This document shows, piece after piece, positions 44,451-49,388 of a stretch of 64,000 nucleotides of DNA; position 1 is the first letter of the stretch; every line of letters begins with the position of its first letter. The DNA comes from Proteobacteria bacterium SG_bin9. GTDB lineage: Bacteria; Pseudomonadota; Alphaproteobacteria; Rhizobiales; Xanthobacteraceae. A program made the position numbers and the translations under genes. The stretch covers positions 26,032 through 90,031 of the forward strand of contig LWDM01000050.1 of the NCBI GenBank assembly GCA_002083525.1. Reading direction: 5' to 3'. The notes beneath the pieces were generated by a model. It had not been told where the DNA came from. It saw only the letters and a program-made list of their open reading frames with translations, and made no database searches.

Positions 44451-44465
44451 TTTGCTCGGCTGCCT

Positions 44466-45044
44466 CTATGCCTGCATGCGCAACGCGCCGCTCGACGGGG
44501 GCAGGATGTAATCGGAAAGTCCGGCCGGGATGCGAAAGCACGTCCGCGGAACCTGCGGATGCAGCGAGAAGAATTCGGTATCGCTTCCCTCCACCGGCTC
44601 GAAGCCGGAGCGGTCGAGCACATAGACAAAGCCGGACGACCACAGCATCGGATCGCGCCGCCAGAGCATGTGTCCCGGTTCACCGTCAGCCCGGAAATCG
44701 TAGCTCGGCCCGTTTCGGCGATACGTATAGGTTATGGAGCCGAAGCGATCGCGCAACCAGCCGACGTTCAGCAGGGCATGAAGGATGACCTCGACCCAGT
44801 CGACGCTCCCGTACACGGCGCATAGTGAACCGGATGCCTTGTGAAAGTCGGTCGCCTGTCGGGGGTCGAGACAATTCAATGGCGCTGGGTGGTTGCCGCC
44901 GTGAAGGACAAATCCCCCTGTGCCGGTCAAAAGGGCGAGCAACGCGACAATCCGGTCAAGCGGCTCCGCCGTCAGATCGGAATGCCGGTCACCGCTGATG
45001 CGTTTCAGCAGATGCTGCAGGTCGATCGCATCGCTCTCCGGCAT
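44466..45044 (-). CDS. Unknown 192-aa soluble protein, last gene of the rSAM/HExxH operon
   Basis: ATG shares one base with the HExxH gene stop (TAATG). No TM segment and no motif I can assign. It shares the lower-GC3 codon usage of the operon. Confidence 0.7.
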   Translation of the reverse strand: MPESDAIDLQHLLKRISGDRHSDLTAEPLDRIVALLALLTGTGGFVLHGGNHPAPLNCLDPRQATDFHKASGSLCAVYGSVDWVEVILHALLNVGWLRDRFGSITYTYRRNGPSYDFRADGEPGHMLWRRDPMLWSSGFVYVLDRSGFEPVEGSDTEFFSLHPQVPRTCFRIPAGLSDYILPPSSGALRMQA

Positions 45045-46210
45045 TAAGCAAACTCAGTGATCCGCTCGTCCAGAGGCTGGAACAGTCCGCGGCCGAACTC
45101 GGTCAGGGCGGGATTGTCGCGTAGCGGTCTTGCCAGCGTCTCGATGTCCTCGCGCAGGAACTGTTCGTTCGCGTCGACGTAACCGCGATCGTCATAGCCG
45201 GTCTGTTTGATCCGGTTGAAGAAGAGCAGCGTATTTGCGAGCGCGTGGTAGGCCATCAATACGCGATTGATCGGCCGGGCTTTGCGGATGGGCGGCGACC
45301 AGTAGAGTTCGGTATCGGTTCCGTCGTCGATCGGGCCGAGGCGCTCGAGCATATAGTAATACTGATGCGAACATTCGTGCACCAGCAGCTCGGCGATCAC
45401 CACCGGAGCATGCGGATAGGAAGAATGAACATACCCAGGCACTTCCTCCCAGCTTCCGGACACGGTCTTGAACGCAGGCTGGAGTGCGCCGACGACGATC
45501 CCGTTCAAGGCGCGATCGACCCAGGCGCGATACTCTGGGGCAGCCGCGTGCAGCGCTTCAAACCCGCCGCGGAAAGTTGCGATCGCATCGTCATCGATCG
45601 ATCCCACCGTGTGGCATTCGCGGAAAAAATCGGAGCCGCCGCCGACGGGCAGCGCGTAGTTTGGGACCAGGTGCGCGCGGCCGAAAGGGGCAACCGTGTG
45701 CATACGAGGCACAGCGGCTGCCATCCAGGCGCCGCCGATGCGTTCGAAGGCATACGCCGTTCCGGAGGCGTCGACGAGCTTGAGCGTTGCGCCATCCGAA
45801 CCGGATTGTGTGGCTTCGGCGCGAACGACGTCCCGCATCGCGCGGCCGTCGAATATCAGCGGCGCCGGTTTGAAAGAGGCTGACCAGTTTCCGTCGTGGC
45901 CGGTTTCAGTCAGCGCGACTGCCACCCGCACTGCGATTTCCGCCGGATCGACCCTGCCGTCCTTGAGCGCCAGGCCTGCCAGTCCGAACGCCATGGACCA
46001 TCCTGCGCGCGCGCGTTGCGGCGAAGGCGGCTTGCCGAGCCAGCCGCTCAGGAACGCCTGCAGTCCGTCGCCGGCCTCGATGCGCTTGCCATGCACCTCG
46101 AGGAACAGTCCGAGCGTGCCTGTCGCGCTGGTGCAGATCACGGTGTCGAAAAGCGATTCATCGACGGGGCCGCACGGAAGGCTGAACGGTGTGATCAGAT
46201 CGTTGCGCAT
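45044..46210 (-). CDS. HExxH-motif protein (resembles the TIGR04267-type / alpha-KG-HExxH peptide beta-hydroxylase family)
   Basis: 'VIAELLVHECSHQYYYMLERLGP' and a later 'AYHALAN'. The ATG at 46210 is preceded by GAGGAG, which is formed by the last two codons of the rSAM gene; there is a 4-nt gap after the rSAM stop. The track start 46225 is a TTG. Confidence 0.8.
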   Translation of the reverse strand: MRNDLITPFSLPCGPVDESLFDTVICTSATGTLGLFLEVHGKRIEAGDGLQAFLSGWLGKPPSPQRARAGWSMAFGLAGLALKDGRVDPAEIAVRVAVALTETGHDGNWSASFKPAPLIFDGRAMRDVVRAEATQSGSDGATLKLVDASGTAYAFERIGGAWMAAAVPRMHTVAPFGRAHLVPNYALPVGGGSDFFRECHTVGSIDDDAIATFRGGFEALHAAAPEYRAWVDRALNGIVVGALQPAFKTVSGSWEEVPGYVHSSYPHAPVVIAELLVHECSHQYYYMLERLGPIDDGTDTELYWSPPIRKARPINRVLMAYHALANTLLFFNRIKQTGYDDRGYVDANEQFLREDIETLARPLRDNPALTEFGRGLFQPLDERITEFA

Positions 46211-46214
46211 CGTC

Positions 46215-47393
46215 TTACTCCTCAAGCTTGCAGAGCAATTTCTCAGGAAGGTCGCGCCGGATCACGGTCCTCATCCGGTCGGCCAGCGCGAACAAAGCGT
46301 CGCAATAAAGCGAGGGGTTCGAGAAACCCTGTCCGTCGAACCGGTGCGGCAGATAGCCCCCTCCGCACGCCGAAAGGTTCGGGCAGGATGCGCAGGTGCT
46401 GCACAGCGTCTGCAGGTTCATGACCTCGTAGTCGGACGCATGCAGCGACAGCTCGTGCTCGAAGATGTTGAGCCGGTCATGCGAGCAGTCGCCGCCGCAA
46501 AGCCGGGTCACGTCGCTTAGTCCGATGGACCCATCCGACTCGATCACGCAGAGCATTTGCAAATCGCCGCCGAGCGAATCCAGATAGACATCGCCCCCCA
46601 GAAGGCCGGTCATCATCGTCTCTAACATGCGGATGCGAGGGGCCGCTTCCCCAAGCCCGTACCAGCGTTCGAAAGCTTCTAGCAAAAAGCGGCGATAGGG
46701 CTCAGGCCCCTGCCACTCGTCCGGCAGGTTCGCGCGGTTGCCGTTCGGCAGCAGCAGGTCGAACTCGGAGAAGCCTTGCTTCACGAACCAATCGACGATC
46801 TCCGCGCCGTTGGCGATCGGATCGATCACGCACAGGCAACCGCCGAACACGGATCTGAATTCCGGGACGTCGCGCCGCAAGCCGCTGATCACCGCAAGCA
46901 ATTGTTCGGTCGATCCGCTGCCGTCCTGCCGCATCACTCTGCGGCGATCCGCGATCTCGGGCGGACCGTCAATGCTCAATCCGAAGCAAACCTCGAATTC
47001 GTCGAACAGTTCGACCCAGGCACGATCGAGCAGAAGTCCGTTGGTCTGCAGCACGAAGTGAATCGTTACATTTTCGGTGGCGCGCAGAATTTCGAGAATG
47101 CGCCGCATATGCCGGTGCCCGACAAGCAGCGGCTCACCGCCATGAAGCTCGATGGTGAAACTGTCGAATCCGAACTTTCGACAATGCTCGGTGATACGTT
47201 CGGACAAACGCCGGATGACTCGCTCGGAGATCACTGGCGGCCGGTTAGCCCACGAACTGTCGCCGCGATTGTAGACATAGCAGTATGTGCAATCGAGATT
47301 GCAGCGCTGCGCCACCTTGACGATGGCCTGACGCAGCACGCCGTCCTTGAAGCGGCGGGATTTCTGTTCCCGCCCGACCTCATTTGAGGGCAT
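46215..47393 (-). CDS. Radical SAM/SPASM domain peptide maturase (FxsB-like)
   Basis: 'VAQRCNLDCTYCYVY' (CxxxCxxC), 'ELHGGEPLL', and a C-terminal Cys-rich SPASM region 'LCSTCASCPNLSACGGGYLPHR...YCDALF'. SD AAGGAGAG lies 5 nt upstream of the ATG. Confidence 0.88.
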   Translation of the reverse strand: MPSNEVGREQKSRRFKDGVLRQAIVKVAQRCNLDCTYCYVYNRGDSSWANRPPVISERVIRRLSERITEHCRKFGFDSFTIELHGGEPLLVGHRHMRRILEILRATENVTIHFVLQTNGLLLDRAWVELFDEFEVCFGLSIDGPPEIADRRRVMRQDGSGSTEQLLAVISGLRRDVPEFRSVFGGCLCVIDPIANGAEIVDWFVKQGFSEFDLLLPNGNRANLPDEWQGPEPYRRFLLEAFERWYGLGEAAPRIRMLETMMTGLLGGDVYLDSLGGDLQMLCVIESDGSIGLSDVTRLCGGDCSHDRLNIFEHELSLHASDYEVMNLQTLCSTCASCPNLSACGGGYLPHRFDGQGFSNPSLYCDALFALADRMRTVIRRDLPEKLLCKLEE

Positions 47394-47404
47394 GACTCTC
47401 CTTT

Positions 47405-47424
47405 GTCCGCGTGAGAGCGCGGAC
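47405..47424 (-). other. Stem-loop immediately 5' of the rSAM ribosome-binding site
   Basis: 'gtccgcg tgagag cgcggac' forms a 7-bp GC-rich stem. On the mRNA it sits between the precursor ORF and the rSAM SD, and is preceded by a U-run ('ggcuuuuugg'). Confidence 0.6.
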
Positions 47425-47451
47425 CCAAAAAGCCGAGTTGAGCCGGTGGCA

Positions 47452-47497
47452 TCGGACTGTTCGCGTCGGACTATTCGGACTGTTCGCGTCGGACTAT
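47452..47497. repeat. Perfect 23-nt tandem direct repeat (2 copies plus a partial third)
   Basis: 'tcggactgttcgcgtcggactat' at 47452..47474 is repeated exactly at 47475..47497 and followed by 'ttgtgtcggac'. Each unit contains the sub-repeat 'tcggact'. Confidence 0.9.
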
Positions 47498-47510
47498 TTG
47501 TGTCGGACGA

Positions 47511-47720
47511 TCAGCCTTCCCGCTTTGTCACTGCCTGGACTTGATCGAGCAATGCCGTGCGGCTGTAGTTCGAATGATTACTGCTGTGCGAGTTGTGCGC
47601 GGACTCGAGGTTCCCGAGATTGACCTTCGCGCGAGCAGCCACTTGTCTCAGCACCTGATTTTGAATGTGCACGAGATCTTCAAGATCGAGTTTGGACAGA
47701 TCGAGATCCTTATCAGCCAT
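47511..47720 (-). CDS. Candidate RiPP precursor peptide (69 aa)
   Basis: GGAGG lies 6-10 nt upstream of the ATG. Sequence: 'MADKDLDLSKLDLEDLVHIQNQVLRQVAARAKVNLGNLESAHNSHSSNHSNYSRTALLDQVQAVTKREG'. It has an acidic, helical leader-like N-terminus resembling FxsA-type leaders, then a His/Ser/Asn/Tyr-rich core. It is the first gene of the operon. Confidence 0.75.
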   Translation of the reverse strand: MADKDLDLSKLDLEDLVHIQNQVLRQVAARAKVNLGNLESAHNSHSSNHSNYSRTALLDQVQAVTKREG

Positions 47721-47903
47721 GACGTCCTCCCAACAAATATCGGTGAACTAAACGTATTTTCTCAGGGACGGCAGCTCGTAGAGACGGCGGCTCTTATCCT
47801 GGAGCAGACGCTGCGACACGACGCTTGGTCAATGGCAAGTTCTGGGAGGTATTCCGTCACACCATGGAAACAAATTTGAATTGATTGCGAAGACCATGAA
47901 AAT

Positions 47904-47927
47904 GCCGGCCCGAACACTCGGGCCGGC
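47904..47927. terminator. Rho-independent terminator after the aldehyde dehydrogenase gene
   Basis: 'gccggcccg aacac tcgggccggc', flanked by 'aaaat' and 'tgctttt'. On the minus strand the hairpin is followed by 'atttt', just downstream of the ALDH stop at 47958. Confidence 0.8.
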
Positions 47928-47957
47928 TGCTTTTCAACGAGAATAGTGAGTGGTGAG

Positions 47958-49388
47958 TTAAGCCGCGTTGAAGCCGGCGATCGCCTTCACTTCGAGGAAG
48001 TCCTCGAGGCCGAACTTGCCCCACTCGCGGCCGTTGCCCGACTGCTTGTAGCCGCCGAACGGCGCGGTGCGCTCGTTCGGAACGCCCTGCAGGTTGACGT
48101 TGCCGGCACGGATCTGACGGCCGACCTTGCGTGCACGTTCGACGTTGCCGGCCGAGACGTAACCGGCAAGGCCGTACGGCGTGTCGTTGGCGAGCTCAAC
48201 GGCTTCCGCTTCGTCCTTGAAGCCCATGATCGCGAGCACGGGTCCGAAGATTTCTTCGCGCGCAATCGTCATGTCCTTCGTCACGTCGGCGAAGATGGTC
48301 GGACGCACGTAGAAGCCCTTGTTGACGCCCTCCGGCAGACCCGGACCACCGGCGACAAGCGTTGCGCCTTCGTCGATGCCCTTCTGGATCAGCGCCTGGA
48401 TCTTGTCCCACTGGGTGCGGTTGACGACCGGACCGATGGTGGTGCCGTCGCCGCGCGGATCGCCGGCCTTGGTCTTGTCGGCGACCGCCTTTGCGATGGC
48501 CGCGACTTCCTTCATCTTCGCCTGCGGCACGATCATGCGCGACGGCGCGTTGCACGACTGGCCAGAGTTGTTGAACATGTGCATCACGCCGCCGGTGACG
48601 GCCTTGCCGAAATCGGCGTCTTCGAGGATCACGTTCGGCGACTTGCCGCCGAGCTCCTGGCTGACGCGCTTCACAGTGTTAGCCGCCCGCTTCGCCACGT
48701 CGATACCGGCGCGGGTCGAGCCGGTGAACGAGATCATGTCGATGCCCGGGTGCTCGCTCATCACGGCGCCGACATCGAGGCCGAGGCCGTTGATCAGGTT
48801 GAACACGCCCTTCGGCACGCCGGCTTCATGCAGGATTTCCGCGAAGATCAATGCCGAGGTCGGGGTGAATTCCGACGGCTTCAGAATCATGGTGCAGCCA
48901 GCGGCGAGCGCAGGCGCGACCTTGCAGGCGATCTGGTTGAGCGGCCAGTTCCATGGCGTGATCATGCCGACGACGCCAACCGGCTCGCGCACGACCACCG
49001 CTGACCCAATCGTCTCTTCGAAGTGGTAGCTCTTCAGCACATCGAGCGTCGAGGCGAGGTGGCCGAGGCCAGCGCCGGCTTGAAGCTTTTCCGCCATCGG
49101 CAGCGGTGCGCCCATTTCGTCGGACACGGCGGCGCCGATGTCCTTCATGCGCGACTTGTAGACCTCGATGATCTTGGCCAGCAGCGCCATGCGCTCTTCG
49201 CGCGTGGTGACGGAGAACGTTTCGAATGCGCGGCGCGCGGCGGCGACCGCCTTGTCCACGTCGGCCTTCGAGCCGACCGCGACGTCATACATCGCTTCCT
49301 CGGTTGCCGGATTAACGACCGGGACCGACTTCTTGACGGCCGGATCGACCCAGGCGCCGTCGATGTAGAATTGCATGCGATTGACCAT
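47958..49388 (-). CDS. NAD(P)-dependent aldehyde dehydrogenase
   Basis: Start at ATG 49388 with GAGGAA upstream; 476 aa. 'ELGGKSP' and catalytic 'NSGQSCNAPSR', with 'EEIFGPV'. Confidence 0.92.
   Translation of the reverse strand: MVNRMQFYIDGAWVDPAVKKSVPVVNPATEEAMYDVAVGSKADVDKAVAAARRAFETFSVTTREERMALLAKIIEVYKSRMKDIGAAVSDEMGAPLPMAEKLQAGAGLGHLASTLDVLKSYHFEETIGSAVVVREPVGVVGMITPWNWPLNQIACKVAPALAAGCTMILKPSEFTPTSALIFAEILHEAGVPKGVFNLINGLGLDVGAVMSEHPGIDMISFTGSTRAGIDVAKRAANTVKRVSQELGGKSPNVILEDADFGKAVTGGVMHMFNNSGQSCNAPSRMIVPQAKMKEVAAIAKAVADKTKAGDPRGDGTTIGPVVNRTQWDKIQALIQKGIDEGATLVAGGPGLPEGVNKGFYVRPTIFADVTKDMTIAREEIFGPVLAIMGFKDEAEAVELANDTPYGLAGYVSAGNVERARKVGRQIRAGNVNLQGVPNERTAPFGGYKQSGNGREWGKFGLEDFLEVKAIAGFNAA

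Follow-up and report, generated by a model that had tools for sequence, protein, structure and literature searches.

This analysis concerns a 192-amino-acid (192-aa) protein encoded in a stretch of 64,000 nucleotides from Proteobacteria bacterium SG_bin9 (assembly GCA_002083525.1, contig LWDM01000050.1, positions 26,032 to 90,031 of the forward strand), which we call the window and whose first letter is position 1. We are confident that the gene is real, that it belongs specifically to a mobile triceptide cassette of four genes, i.e., a small cluster for a ribosomally synthesised and post-translationally modified peptide (RiPP), and that it founds an undescribed family. Its product is somewhat more probably than not (we put the probability at roughly 0.55) an NAD-dependent modifier with the H-Y-E type of ADP-ribosyltransferase (ART) fold, i.e., an ART that would act on the cyclised peptide.

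44466..45044, minus strand: the 192-aa gene, the sole long open reading frame (ORF) there, with an ATG start; it founds an undescribed family and encodes a probable H-Y-E-type ART-fold tailoring enzyme.

A real and translationally coupled gene

The ORF can be taken as real, not a product of chance, because it has close homologues, belongs to a small family of 74 sequence clusters, gives a confident AlphaFold2 (AF2) model and has a dN/dS of 0.16–0.24 against two syntenic orthologues, which indicates purifying selection. A word-indexed search found five close homologue clusters (75–99% identity, all syntenic), and a full hidden Markov model search of 1.84 billion representatives found the 74 clusters at E<=1e-3, with 36 of them at E<=1e-10. 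Most members of the family are 150–230 aa long. No related loci were found when genome contigs were searched with the close-homologue alignment. The peptides that an initial annotation of this DNA had quoted, 'FVLHGGNHPAPLNCLDPRQATDF' and 'AVYGSVDWVEVILHALLN', are found in the translation.

The gene follows that of a 393-aa protein with an HExxH motif. On the plus strand, positions 45042–45046 read c-a-t-t-a, which becomes TAATG in the mRNA, and base 45044 is common to the TAA of the HExxH gene and the ATG of the 192-aa gene. The initial annotation had reported this one-base overlap without a strand; the overlap is indeed present, and the gene lies on the minus strand. The overlap and the conserved gene order suggest co-transcription. 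The gene is almost certainly co-expressed with the HExxH gene and a radical S-adenosylmethionine (rSAM) enzyme gene before it, as had been proposed, and it is co-inherited with both genes.

The initial annotation could assign the protein to no family, and our searches gave the same answer: there was no match in Pfam, NCBIfam, PADLOC or PHROG at E<=1–10 and no relative among PDB sequences. Its statement that the protein has neither a signal peptide nor a transmembrane segment is essentially correct as well. The N-terminus is polar and acidic, with no signal peptide, and the single hydrophobic stretch (residues 32–50, KD19 1.67) is modelled as a buried helix plus the strand that carries an invariant His-Gly pair. 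We considered a transmembrane protein and rejected it, as this lone stretch forms a core helix and strand.

The cassette and its insertion site

The 192-aa gene is the last of four genes that come and go as a unit. The parts of this unit are as follows.

44451..47957, minus strand: the whole accessory cassette (own promoter region, precursor, rSAM, HExxH and 192-aa genes), with empty sites in three same-genus genomes.
47511..47720, minus strand: a 69-aa precursor peptide, MADKDLDLSKLDLEDLVHIQNQVLRQVAARAKVNLGNLESAHNSHSSNHSNYSRTALLDQVQAVTKREG, with the core AHNSHSSNHSNYS and a 16-residue tail.
46215..47393, minus strand: a radical SAM/SPASM three-residue cyclophane-forming enzyme (NF041707 YhhB, 3e-86; TIGR04269 FxsB, 1.6e-80; PF04055); the YhhB and FxsB scores are both below their equivalog cut-offs.
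45044..46225, minus strand: an alpha-ketoglutarate (aKG)-HExxH-type peptide oxygenase of 393 aa (TIGR04267, 1e-25, 90.8 bits against a cut-off of 40).
47904..47927, either strand: a 10-bp perfect GC-rich hairpin with T-runs on both strands and sides, a bidirectional terminator of the upstream aldehyde dehydrogenase gene.

The cassette sits between a convergent GFA gene and the 3' end of an aldehyde dehydrogenase (Aldedh) gene. In three congeneric species these two genes are only 84–149 bp apart and all four cassette genes are absent, so the precursor, rSAM, HExxH and 192-aa genes constitute one 3.5-kb presence/absence unit (an indel). The homology of these genomes to the window ends at ~44443 and ~47955–47962, and their spacers (L029:3563-3647, L030:3235-3380 and L031:2889-3038) contain hairpin-like sequence. 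The 192-aa family is absent from 60 related genomes, which include four other species of the genus. The EamA, MarR and esterase genes nearby are core genes that also occur in relatives without the cassette. The hairpin lies between the aldehyde dehydrogenase stop and the promoter region of the cassette. As the aldehyde dehydrogenase transcript ends there, the cassette must have a promoter of its own, within 47721–47903. The initial annotation had described an operon with no peptidase or exporter, which is true of the 3.5-kb cassette.

The precursor is kept in the syntenic loci, and distant clusters with the family gene have homologous precursors. Where the HExxH gene begins can be fixed only to within a few codons, because orthologues are called at 389–390 aa. 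The listed TTG start overlaps the rSAM stop by 11 nt, and an in-frame ATG (Met6) five codons downstream would begin the gene just past that stop.

Genomic contexts of the family

We sampled contexts from distant members of the family (25–39% identity), where the flanks differ in each case. Nine independent contexts, the window included, have a cyclophane-type rSAM and/or TIGR04267 aKG-HExxH neighbour (the others are L007, L009, L010, L011, L012, L018, L032 and L034), and this holds for homologues down to ~30% identity. The arrangements are as follows.

L007/L008: a 68-aa ORF, rSAM, HExxH, family gene.
L009: a 72-aa ORF, rSAM, HExxH, HD, family gene.
L010: a 62-aa ORF, rSAM, HExxH, a 124-aa ORF on the opposite strand, family gene.
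L011 and L012: a larger cluster in each case, where the family gene accompanies pairs of rSAM genes and of aKG-HExxH paralogues, an S41/PDZ peptidase, and two or three short ORFs that resemble precursors.
L018: a 66-aa ORF, rSAM, a 388-aa ORF, a fusion of the family with HD.
L032: HExxH, HD, family gene.
L033: HD, family gene, on a 1.4-kb contig.
L034: the end of an HExxH gene, HD, family gene.

The middle genes of L007 and L009–L012 match TIGR04267, and the second HExxH paralogues of L011 and L012 score slightly below its cut-off. L032 and L034 are limited by their contigs and show HExxH and HD only, with neither rSAM nor precursor; their genes matched HExxH proteins by tblastn. Wherever contigs reach the precursors, these are homologous, with a leader motif DLS-L-x3-DL-x2-I-x-N-x2-LR-x-V-x2-RAK, a core H-x-S-H-x3-H-S/N, and invariant H42 and H49. 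L012 has IS3-type transposase genes on both sides, which suggests that the whole L012 cluster is mobile. L011 adjoins an IS66 element.

Other relatives live elsewhere. The member P0024 (L013:7001-7594, GCA_027347685.1; E 2e-19) lies in an operon of TIM, RpiB, PGK, GAPDH, the family gene, Rpe, LOG and transketolase, with no RiPP genes near it, and this glycolysis/pentose-phosphate setting hints at a role, ancestral or alternative, that has nothing to do with peptides. Low-GC members that resemble the Candidate Phyla Radiation (CPR) adjoin rpoB/rpoC, rfbB/rfbC or recQ. A maximum-likelihood tree, rooted with the described family DUF6886, groups all RiPP-context members in a single clade of 46 rows (support 97/90). 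The 192-aa protein falls in a 6-row subclade (starred in the tree), where the known contexts are all RiPP, while the CPR-like non-RiPP members are basal and P0024 is nested in one subclade.

The initial annotation had reasoned that the gene would be an unrelated hitch-hiker if homologues were widespread without rSAM/HExxH neighbours. Such homologues do exist among the distant and basal relatives. Within the window protein's clade, however, every informative context is an rSAM/aKG-HExxH cluster. The 192-aa gene is therefore no hitch-hiker; it is a dedicated component of the cluster.

Conserved residues and predicted fold

In the 52-sequence family alignment, H48 and G49 are invariant (52/52 each), and a Ser or Thr follows at position 50 in 50/52. 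Y78, E157 and G138 are each present in 51/52 sequences, F148 and G72 in 50/52, and D66 in 47/52. The consensus motifs are VLHGSN, LEPRQAND, K-SGN-x2-AVYAT, DG-VYVLDR-x2-F and E[Y/F]-S-x2-P-x2-P. Three residues have proposed roles.

44901..44903, minus strand: the His48 codon, in the 'VLHG[S/T]' motif at the end of strand 45–50; proposed NAD-binding His.
44811..44813, minus strand: the Tyr78 codon, in the 'AVY[A/G][T/S]' motif on strand 75–80, followed by a helix; proposed nicotinamide-stacking Tyr.
44574..44576, minus strand: the Glu157 codon, the first residue of strand 157–160 in 'E[Y/F/W]x[S/A/C]'; proposed catalytic Glu.

With the 52-sequence alignment, AF2 gives a model with a mean predicted local distance difference test score (pLDDT) of 91.2 and a predicted template modelling score (pTM) of 0.88. 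With the six close homologues only, the pLDDT is 40 and the model is unusable. The N-terminal half consists of helices 3–18 and 29–41, strand 45–50 ending in H48-G49, a loop with PRQA-D, and strand 75–80 with Y78. Onward, there are helices 83–91 and 94–101, a hairpin (106–119), helix 121–128, strand 138–144 (GFVYVLD), strand 157–160 from E157, and strand 168–172.

The sheet of a canonical ART is split, and its strands 1, 2 and 5 bear the catalytic residues (PMC13617354). At the level of secondary structure, the modelled H48 (strand end), Y78 (strand then helix) and E157 (strand start) appear to match this layout. The predicted elements also agree with what defines an H-Y-E ART: a His in H-G-[S/T] at a strand end, a Tyr on a strand leading into a helix, and a Glu at a strand start. 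The initial annotation had named a clear housekeeping fold as the outcome that would speak against a new function; no such fold was seen.

Structural searches with the model point the same way, with low scores. In Foldseek against the PDB, the only hits that combine an rmsd (root-mean-square deviation) of ~6–10 A, ~140 aligned columns and a probability of at least 0.14 are ARTs: TreTu (8s2n_B; E 0.33, probability 0.44, target-normalised TM-score 0.41), TreX (9gco_B and 8s2m_B) and Arr-2 (9iba, probability 0.30). These ART hits are weak (E 0.3–1.1, TM-scores of 0.26–0.30 normalised by query and 0.36–0.41 by target), and the remaining PDB hits have an rmsd of 10–20 A or a short aligned stretch. 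TreX and TreTu are ART toxins (PMC13617354); their domains are of the R-S-E type, not H-Y-E. Compared with Arr, TreX and TreTu, the family carries additional helices at the N-terminus and an insertion of a hairpin plus helix (~102–130), and TM-scores are 0.3–0.4. In BFVD, an uncharacterised 317-aa protein from a Megaviridae environmental sample (A0A5J6VI63) was found at E 9.7e-6 with probability 1.0 and a query-normalised TM-score of 0.43, so the fold may also occur in nucleocytoplasmic large DNA viruses. The weak BFVD hits include two annotated phage ARTs.

Sequence profiles add similar echoes. The family profile against PDB sequences gave only E 0.15–0.6, among which the sole biologically meaningful match was 2kxi_A (E 0.26), aligned over G-Y-I-Y-V-L-N-R-D-L-F...F-E-Y. 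The 2kxi fragment belongs to Pfam NarE (7.4e-16), and NarE is an ADP-ribosyltransferase of Neisseria. Arr (PF12120) shows 'YHGT', 'VY[L/F]T' plus helix, and 'G-R-I-Y-I-V-E-P' before an acidic residue, in the same order as the family's 'LHG[S/T]', 'VYAT' plus helix, and 'G-x-V-Y-V-L-D-R'. We aligned the family by hhalign to Arr as a single sequence and as a 22-sequence profile (full, core-only and insertion-trimmed). H-G-[S/T] fell on H-G-T, and V-Y-A-T plus helix on V-Y-L-T plus helix, with P 0.03–0.2. A same-genus genome (G003) encodes a typical 135-aa Arr-type rifampin ADP-ribosyltransferase (L014:1417-1824), and the window's own genome has none; the motif order of this congeneric orthologue is FYHGT, an IYFTATLDAA helix, GRIYIVEP and an acidic residue. 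The indications of an ART are thus each weak, yet they come from separate methods and all lead toward the ART fold and none elsewhere.

Link to HD phosphohydrolases

HD domains are phosphohydrolases, and they recur beside or within the family. P0030 (415 aa), inside an rSAM/HExxH operon, is a fusion of the family with HD (residues 271–364), and P0061 (344 aa), a non-RiPP protein of the basal clade, is a fusion with HD_4 (residues 209–341). A separate HD gene, homologous among the loci, stands directly upstream of the family gene in four contexts (L009:6391-7011, L032:1396-1900, L033:18-284 and L034:228-758). The window cassette has no HD gene, and a search of the rest of the window's genome found no HD orthologue. 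Such recurrence implies a phosphoester-containing group as product or substrate of the family, and this would fit an ADP-ribosyl adduct that is subsequently trimmed.

A comparable pairing is found in the SidE-type effectors of Legionella, where a mono-ADP-ribosyltransferase domain acts together with a phosphodiesterase that splits the pyrophosphate of ADP-ribose, and this may explain why family and HD recur together. However, SidE-type effectors are large, directed at eukaryotes and act on ubiquitin, whereas the proteins here are small, their substrate would be a RiPP, and the window cassette lacks HD. The HD_4 fusion also prompted us to consider a RelA/SpoT-like synthetase, which was rejected, there being no such motifs or matches.

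Together, the H-G-[S/T], Y and E residues, the ART neighbours and the recurrent HD partner point to nucleotide (NAD) chemistry on the peptide, and they support the initial annotation in proposing a tailoring enzyme. That annotation had also offered a leader peptidase, to which one could add a follower-trimming hydrolase for the precursor. We regard either as very unlikely, even if the cassette contains no recognisable peptidase and invariant His, Asp and Glu residues could in principle form a hydrolytic site. Our searches found no peptidase signal for the protein: no peptidase family or fold is among the significant or sensible hits, and the Foldseek and PDB lists give spurious weak entries only. 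HD fusions and neighbours would make no sense beside a peptidase, and the sister clusters L011 and L012 have an S41/PDZ peptidase of their own. Furthermore, aKG-HExxH enzymes can hydroxylate and can oxidatively cleave C-terminal tails (PMC12636437), so HExxH enzymes of this type can cut backbones themselves.

Comparison with characterised triceptide clusters

The nearest precedent, from 2026, is MicD of the minviopeptin (mic) pathway, a triceptide pathway of Mucilaginibacter inviolabilis (PMC12912966). There, the rSAM enzyme MicB forms three cyclophanes, MicD attaches ADP-ribose to a ring His once cyclisation is complete and not before, and the aKG/Fe enzyme MicC then removes the C-terminal tail oxidatively, so that ADP-ribosylation is an obligatory intermediate before the oxygenase (PMC12912966). 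MicD is an ART of ~23 kDa that is leader-independent, has no RiPP recognition element (RRE) and requires His7 and Glu101 (PMC12912966).

The window cassette follows the same logic: its precursor has a His-rich core and a tail of 16 residues, and the other genes encode an rSAM enzyme, an aKG oxygenase and a small His/Tyr/Glu enzyme. Both MicD and the 192-aa protein are small, are encoded after genes for a three-residue-cyclophane rSAM enzyme and an aKG oxygenase, and accompany cores with His-X-X motifs. A His and a Glu are critical in MicD, a His and a Glu are invariant or near-invariant here, and neither protein has an RRE. The differences are also clear. MicD is recognisable as an ART by annotation, whereas the window family matches no ART model. 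The His of MicD is residue 7, whereas here ~45 helical residues precede the His and ~30 extra residues separate the Tyr helix from the Glu strand. MicC is described as another aKG non-haem-iron enzyme, whereas here the oxygenase is of the aKG-HExxH type. A search of the genome contigs with a degenerate, back-translated DNA pattern for the MicA core gave no match.

Could the protein protect its producer? An ART-fold protein might inactivate the mature or immature peptide, as in Arr-like self-resistance, or hit a cellular target. The best structural hits include the resistance ART Arr, and in the mic pathway the cyclised peptide without ADP-ribose is weakly antibacterial and the ADP-ribosylated form inactive, with self-protection raised as a possibility (PMC12912966). 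We nevertheless consider a protective role distinctly unlikely, given the fixed, translationally coupled position of the gene inside a biosynthetic operon, its co-variation with one precursor family, and the obligatory place of ADP-ribosylation before the oxygenase acts in mic. Such a role would differ from ADP-ribosylation as a biosynthetic step in purpose; the chemistry would be the same.

The related htk cluster offers another comparison. Like other His-type triceptide systems, it has His-X-X cyclophane precursors modified by a related rSAM clade (HtkA and HtkB), and it has a further, unassigned gene, whose product HtkC co-purifies with the precursor and causes no detectable change (PMC11499958). 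By analogy, the 192-aa protein could be a non-catalytic partner, either an RRE-like leader-binding chaperone, as the initial annotation had also suggested, or a scaffold for the rSAM and HExxH enzymes. In favour of this, HtkC binds its precursor without detectable change (PMC11499958), and the RRE check was confined to the 192-aa protein and its relatives. A partner of this kind is nonetheless most unlikely: no PqqD/RRE signal was found (Pfam and NCBIfam for the 192-aa protein, Pfam for its relatives), the model is an enzyme-like alpha/beta fold of ~190 residues and not a winged helix, and an invariant His-Gly with near-invariant Tyr and Glu at 20–35% identity indicates an active site. Basal members also live without RiPP genes.

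Evidence against an ADP-ribosyltransferase

Several points weigh against our assignment of the ART fold, in addition to the secondary-structure level of the residue match. None of the 52 family members matches a Pfam ART family, and the 192-aa protein has no ART hit in Pfam or NCBIfam. The hhalign P values against Arr are not significant, no PDB hit from Foldseek reaches E<=1e-3 (best query-normalised TM-score 0.30), and the only significant structural neighbour is the uncharacterised Megaviridae protein. The comparison with MicD was made at the level of its published description. F67-X10-Y78 in the window protein is like the Phe-X10-Tyr pair of MicD, but position 67 (after D66) reads Ala in 'QANDAAK' of the A3/A4 consensus and only Y78 is conserved, so the pair is not a family feature. 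Basal members of the family are found outside RiPP clusters.

The nearest sequence family, DUF6886 (PF21820), counts against an ART too: its His is not followed by Gly, and the Glu is missing. No other described family is linked to ours by sequence. The basal member L038 reaches 27.2 bits against a gathering threshold of 27, and profile–profile alignment (hhalign) gives P = 1.1e-3 over 122 columns. The two share His48, Pro61-Arg62, an aromatic residue at 78, Tyr141, Phe148 and Pro166. DUF6886 differs in having Phe for Gly49, Trp for Tyr78, no counterpart of Glu157, its own 'PRDCPR' motif and a very long branch, and it was not seen in RiPP clusters. The 192-aa protein itself has no hit to DUF6886 at E<=1, and a superfamily profile (family, CPR-like members and DUF6886; 87 sequences) gave only noise against PDB sequences (PAF1, beta-2-microglobulin). 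Judged by sequence, the window protein is a distant relative of DUF6886 and not a member. We found no literature on DUF6886.

These links give some room to a different explanation, in which the family has a new, DUF6886-related fold that is not an ART and transfers another nucleotide or phosphate group to the core (AMPylation, phosphorylation or phosphoribosylation), with HD removing or trimming that group. The significant sequence links are to DUF6886 only, no ART link being significant; HD linkage fits any phosphoester chemistry; and H48, D66 and E157 make up an invariant polar set. On the other hand, H-G-[S/T], Y and E at matching strand positions are an ART signature, the sensible Foldseek PDB neighbours are all ARTs, and the family shows no P-loop, nucleotidyltransferase or kinase motif and no match to such a family. 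On balance we think a new fold rather unlikely.

Proposed function

Our preferred explanation remains an H-Y-E ART, for which the fold, NAD+ as the donor, the residue modified and the sequence of reactions are inferred. The 192-aa protein is the fourth and last product of a self-contained RiPP cassette, translated by stop/start coupling with the HExxH gene. The rSAM enzyme would first make the cyclophane rings. His48-Gly49 and Tyr78 would then hold NAD+ and Glu157 would activate the ribose C1'', so that ADP-ribose could be passed to a core nucleophile, most plausibly an invariant His, after cyclisation, as MicD does. In the sister clusters, the HD phosphohydrolase (encoded by the next gene or fused) would trim the ADP-ribose, and the window cassette would have lost this step or never had it.

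A tentative extension, which we rate as doubtful, is a two-step tagging: NAD-dependent ADP-ribosylation of a ring His followed by pyrophosphate cleavage by HD, leaving a phosphoribosyl or ribosyl His, a modification undescribed in ribosomal peptides. The family might then be an unrecognised ART branch, one that present sequence models do not see. Its origin would lie in stand-alone DUF6886-like proteins of CPR-like bacteria, and its recruitment into rSAM/aKG-HExxH clusters would be independent of MicD.

Significance

ADP-ribosylation of a RiPP was first reported in 2026, for one cluster and four orthologues. If the family described here is an ART, it would be a second, apparently independent enzyme lineage for peptide ADP-ribosylation, tied to a distinct and widespread cluster type with a His-rich H-x-S-H core, a YhhB/FxsB-like rSAM enzyme and an aKG-HExxH enzyme, and the clusters with an HD hydrolase would create a further new modification. 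The proposal gives a testable function to a family that no database names and to its distant relative DUF6886. For genome mining, the family gene can serve as a marker, and the four-gene cassette is well defined and, at 3.5 kb, short enough for direct expression. Should the protein not be an ART, it would still be a conserved enzyme in a well-defined RiPP pathway and therefore a good target for study.

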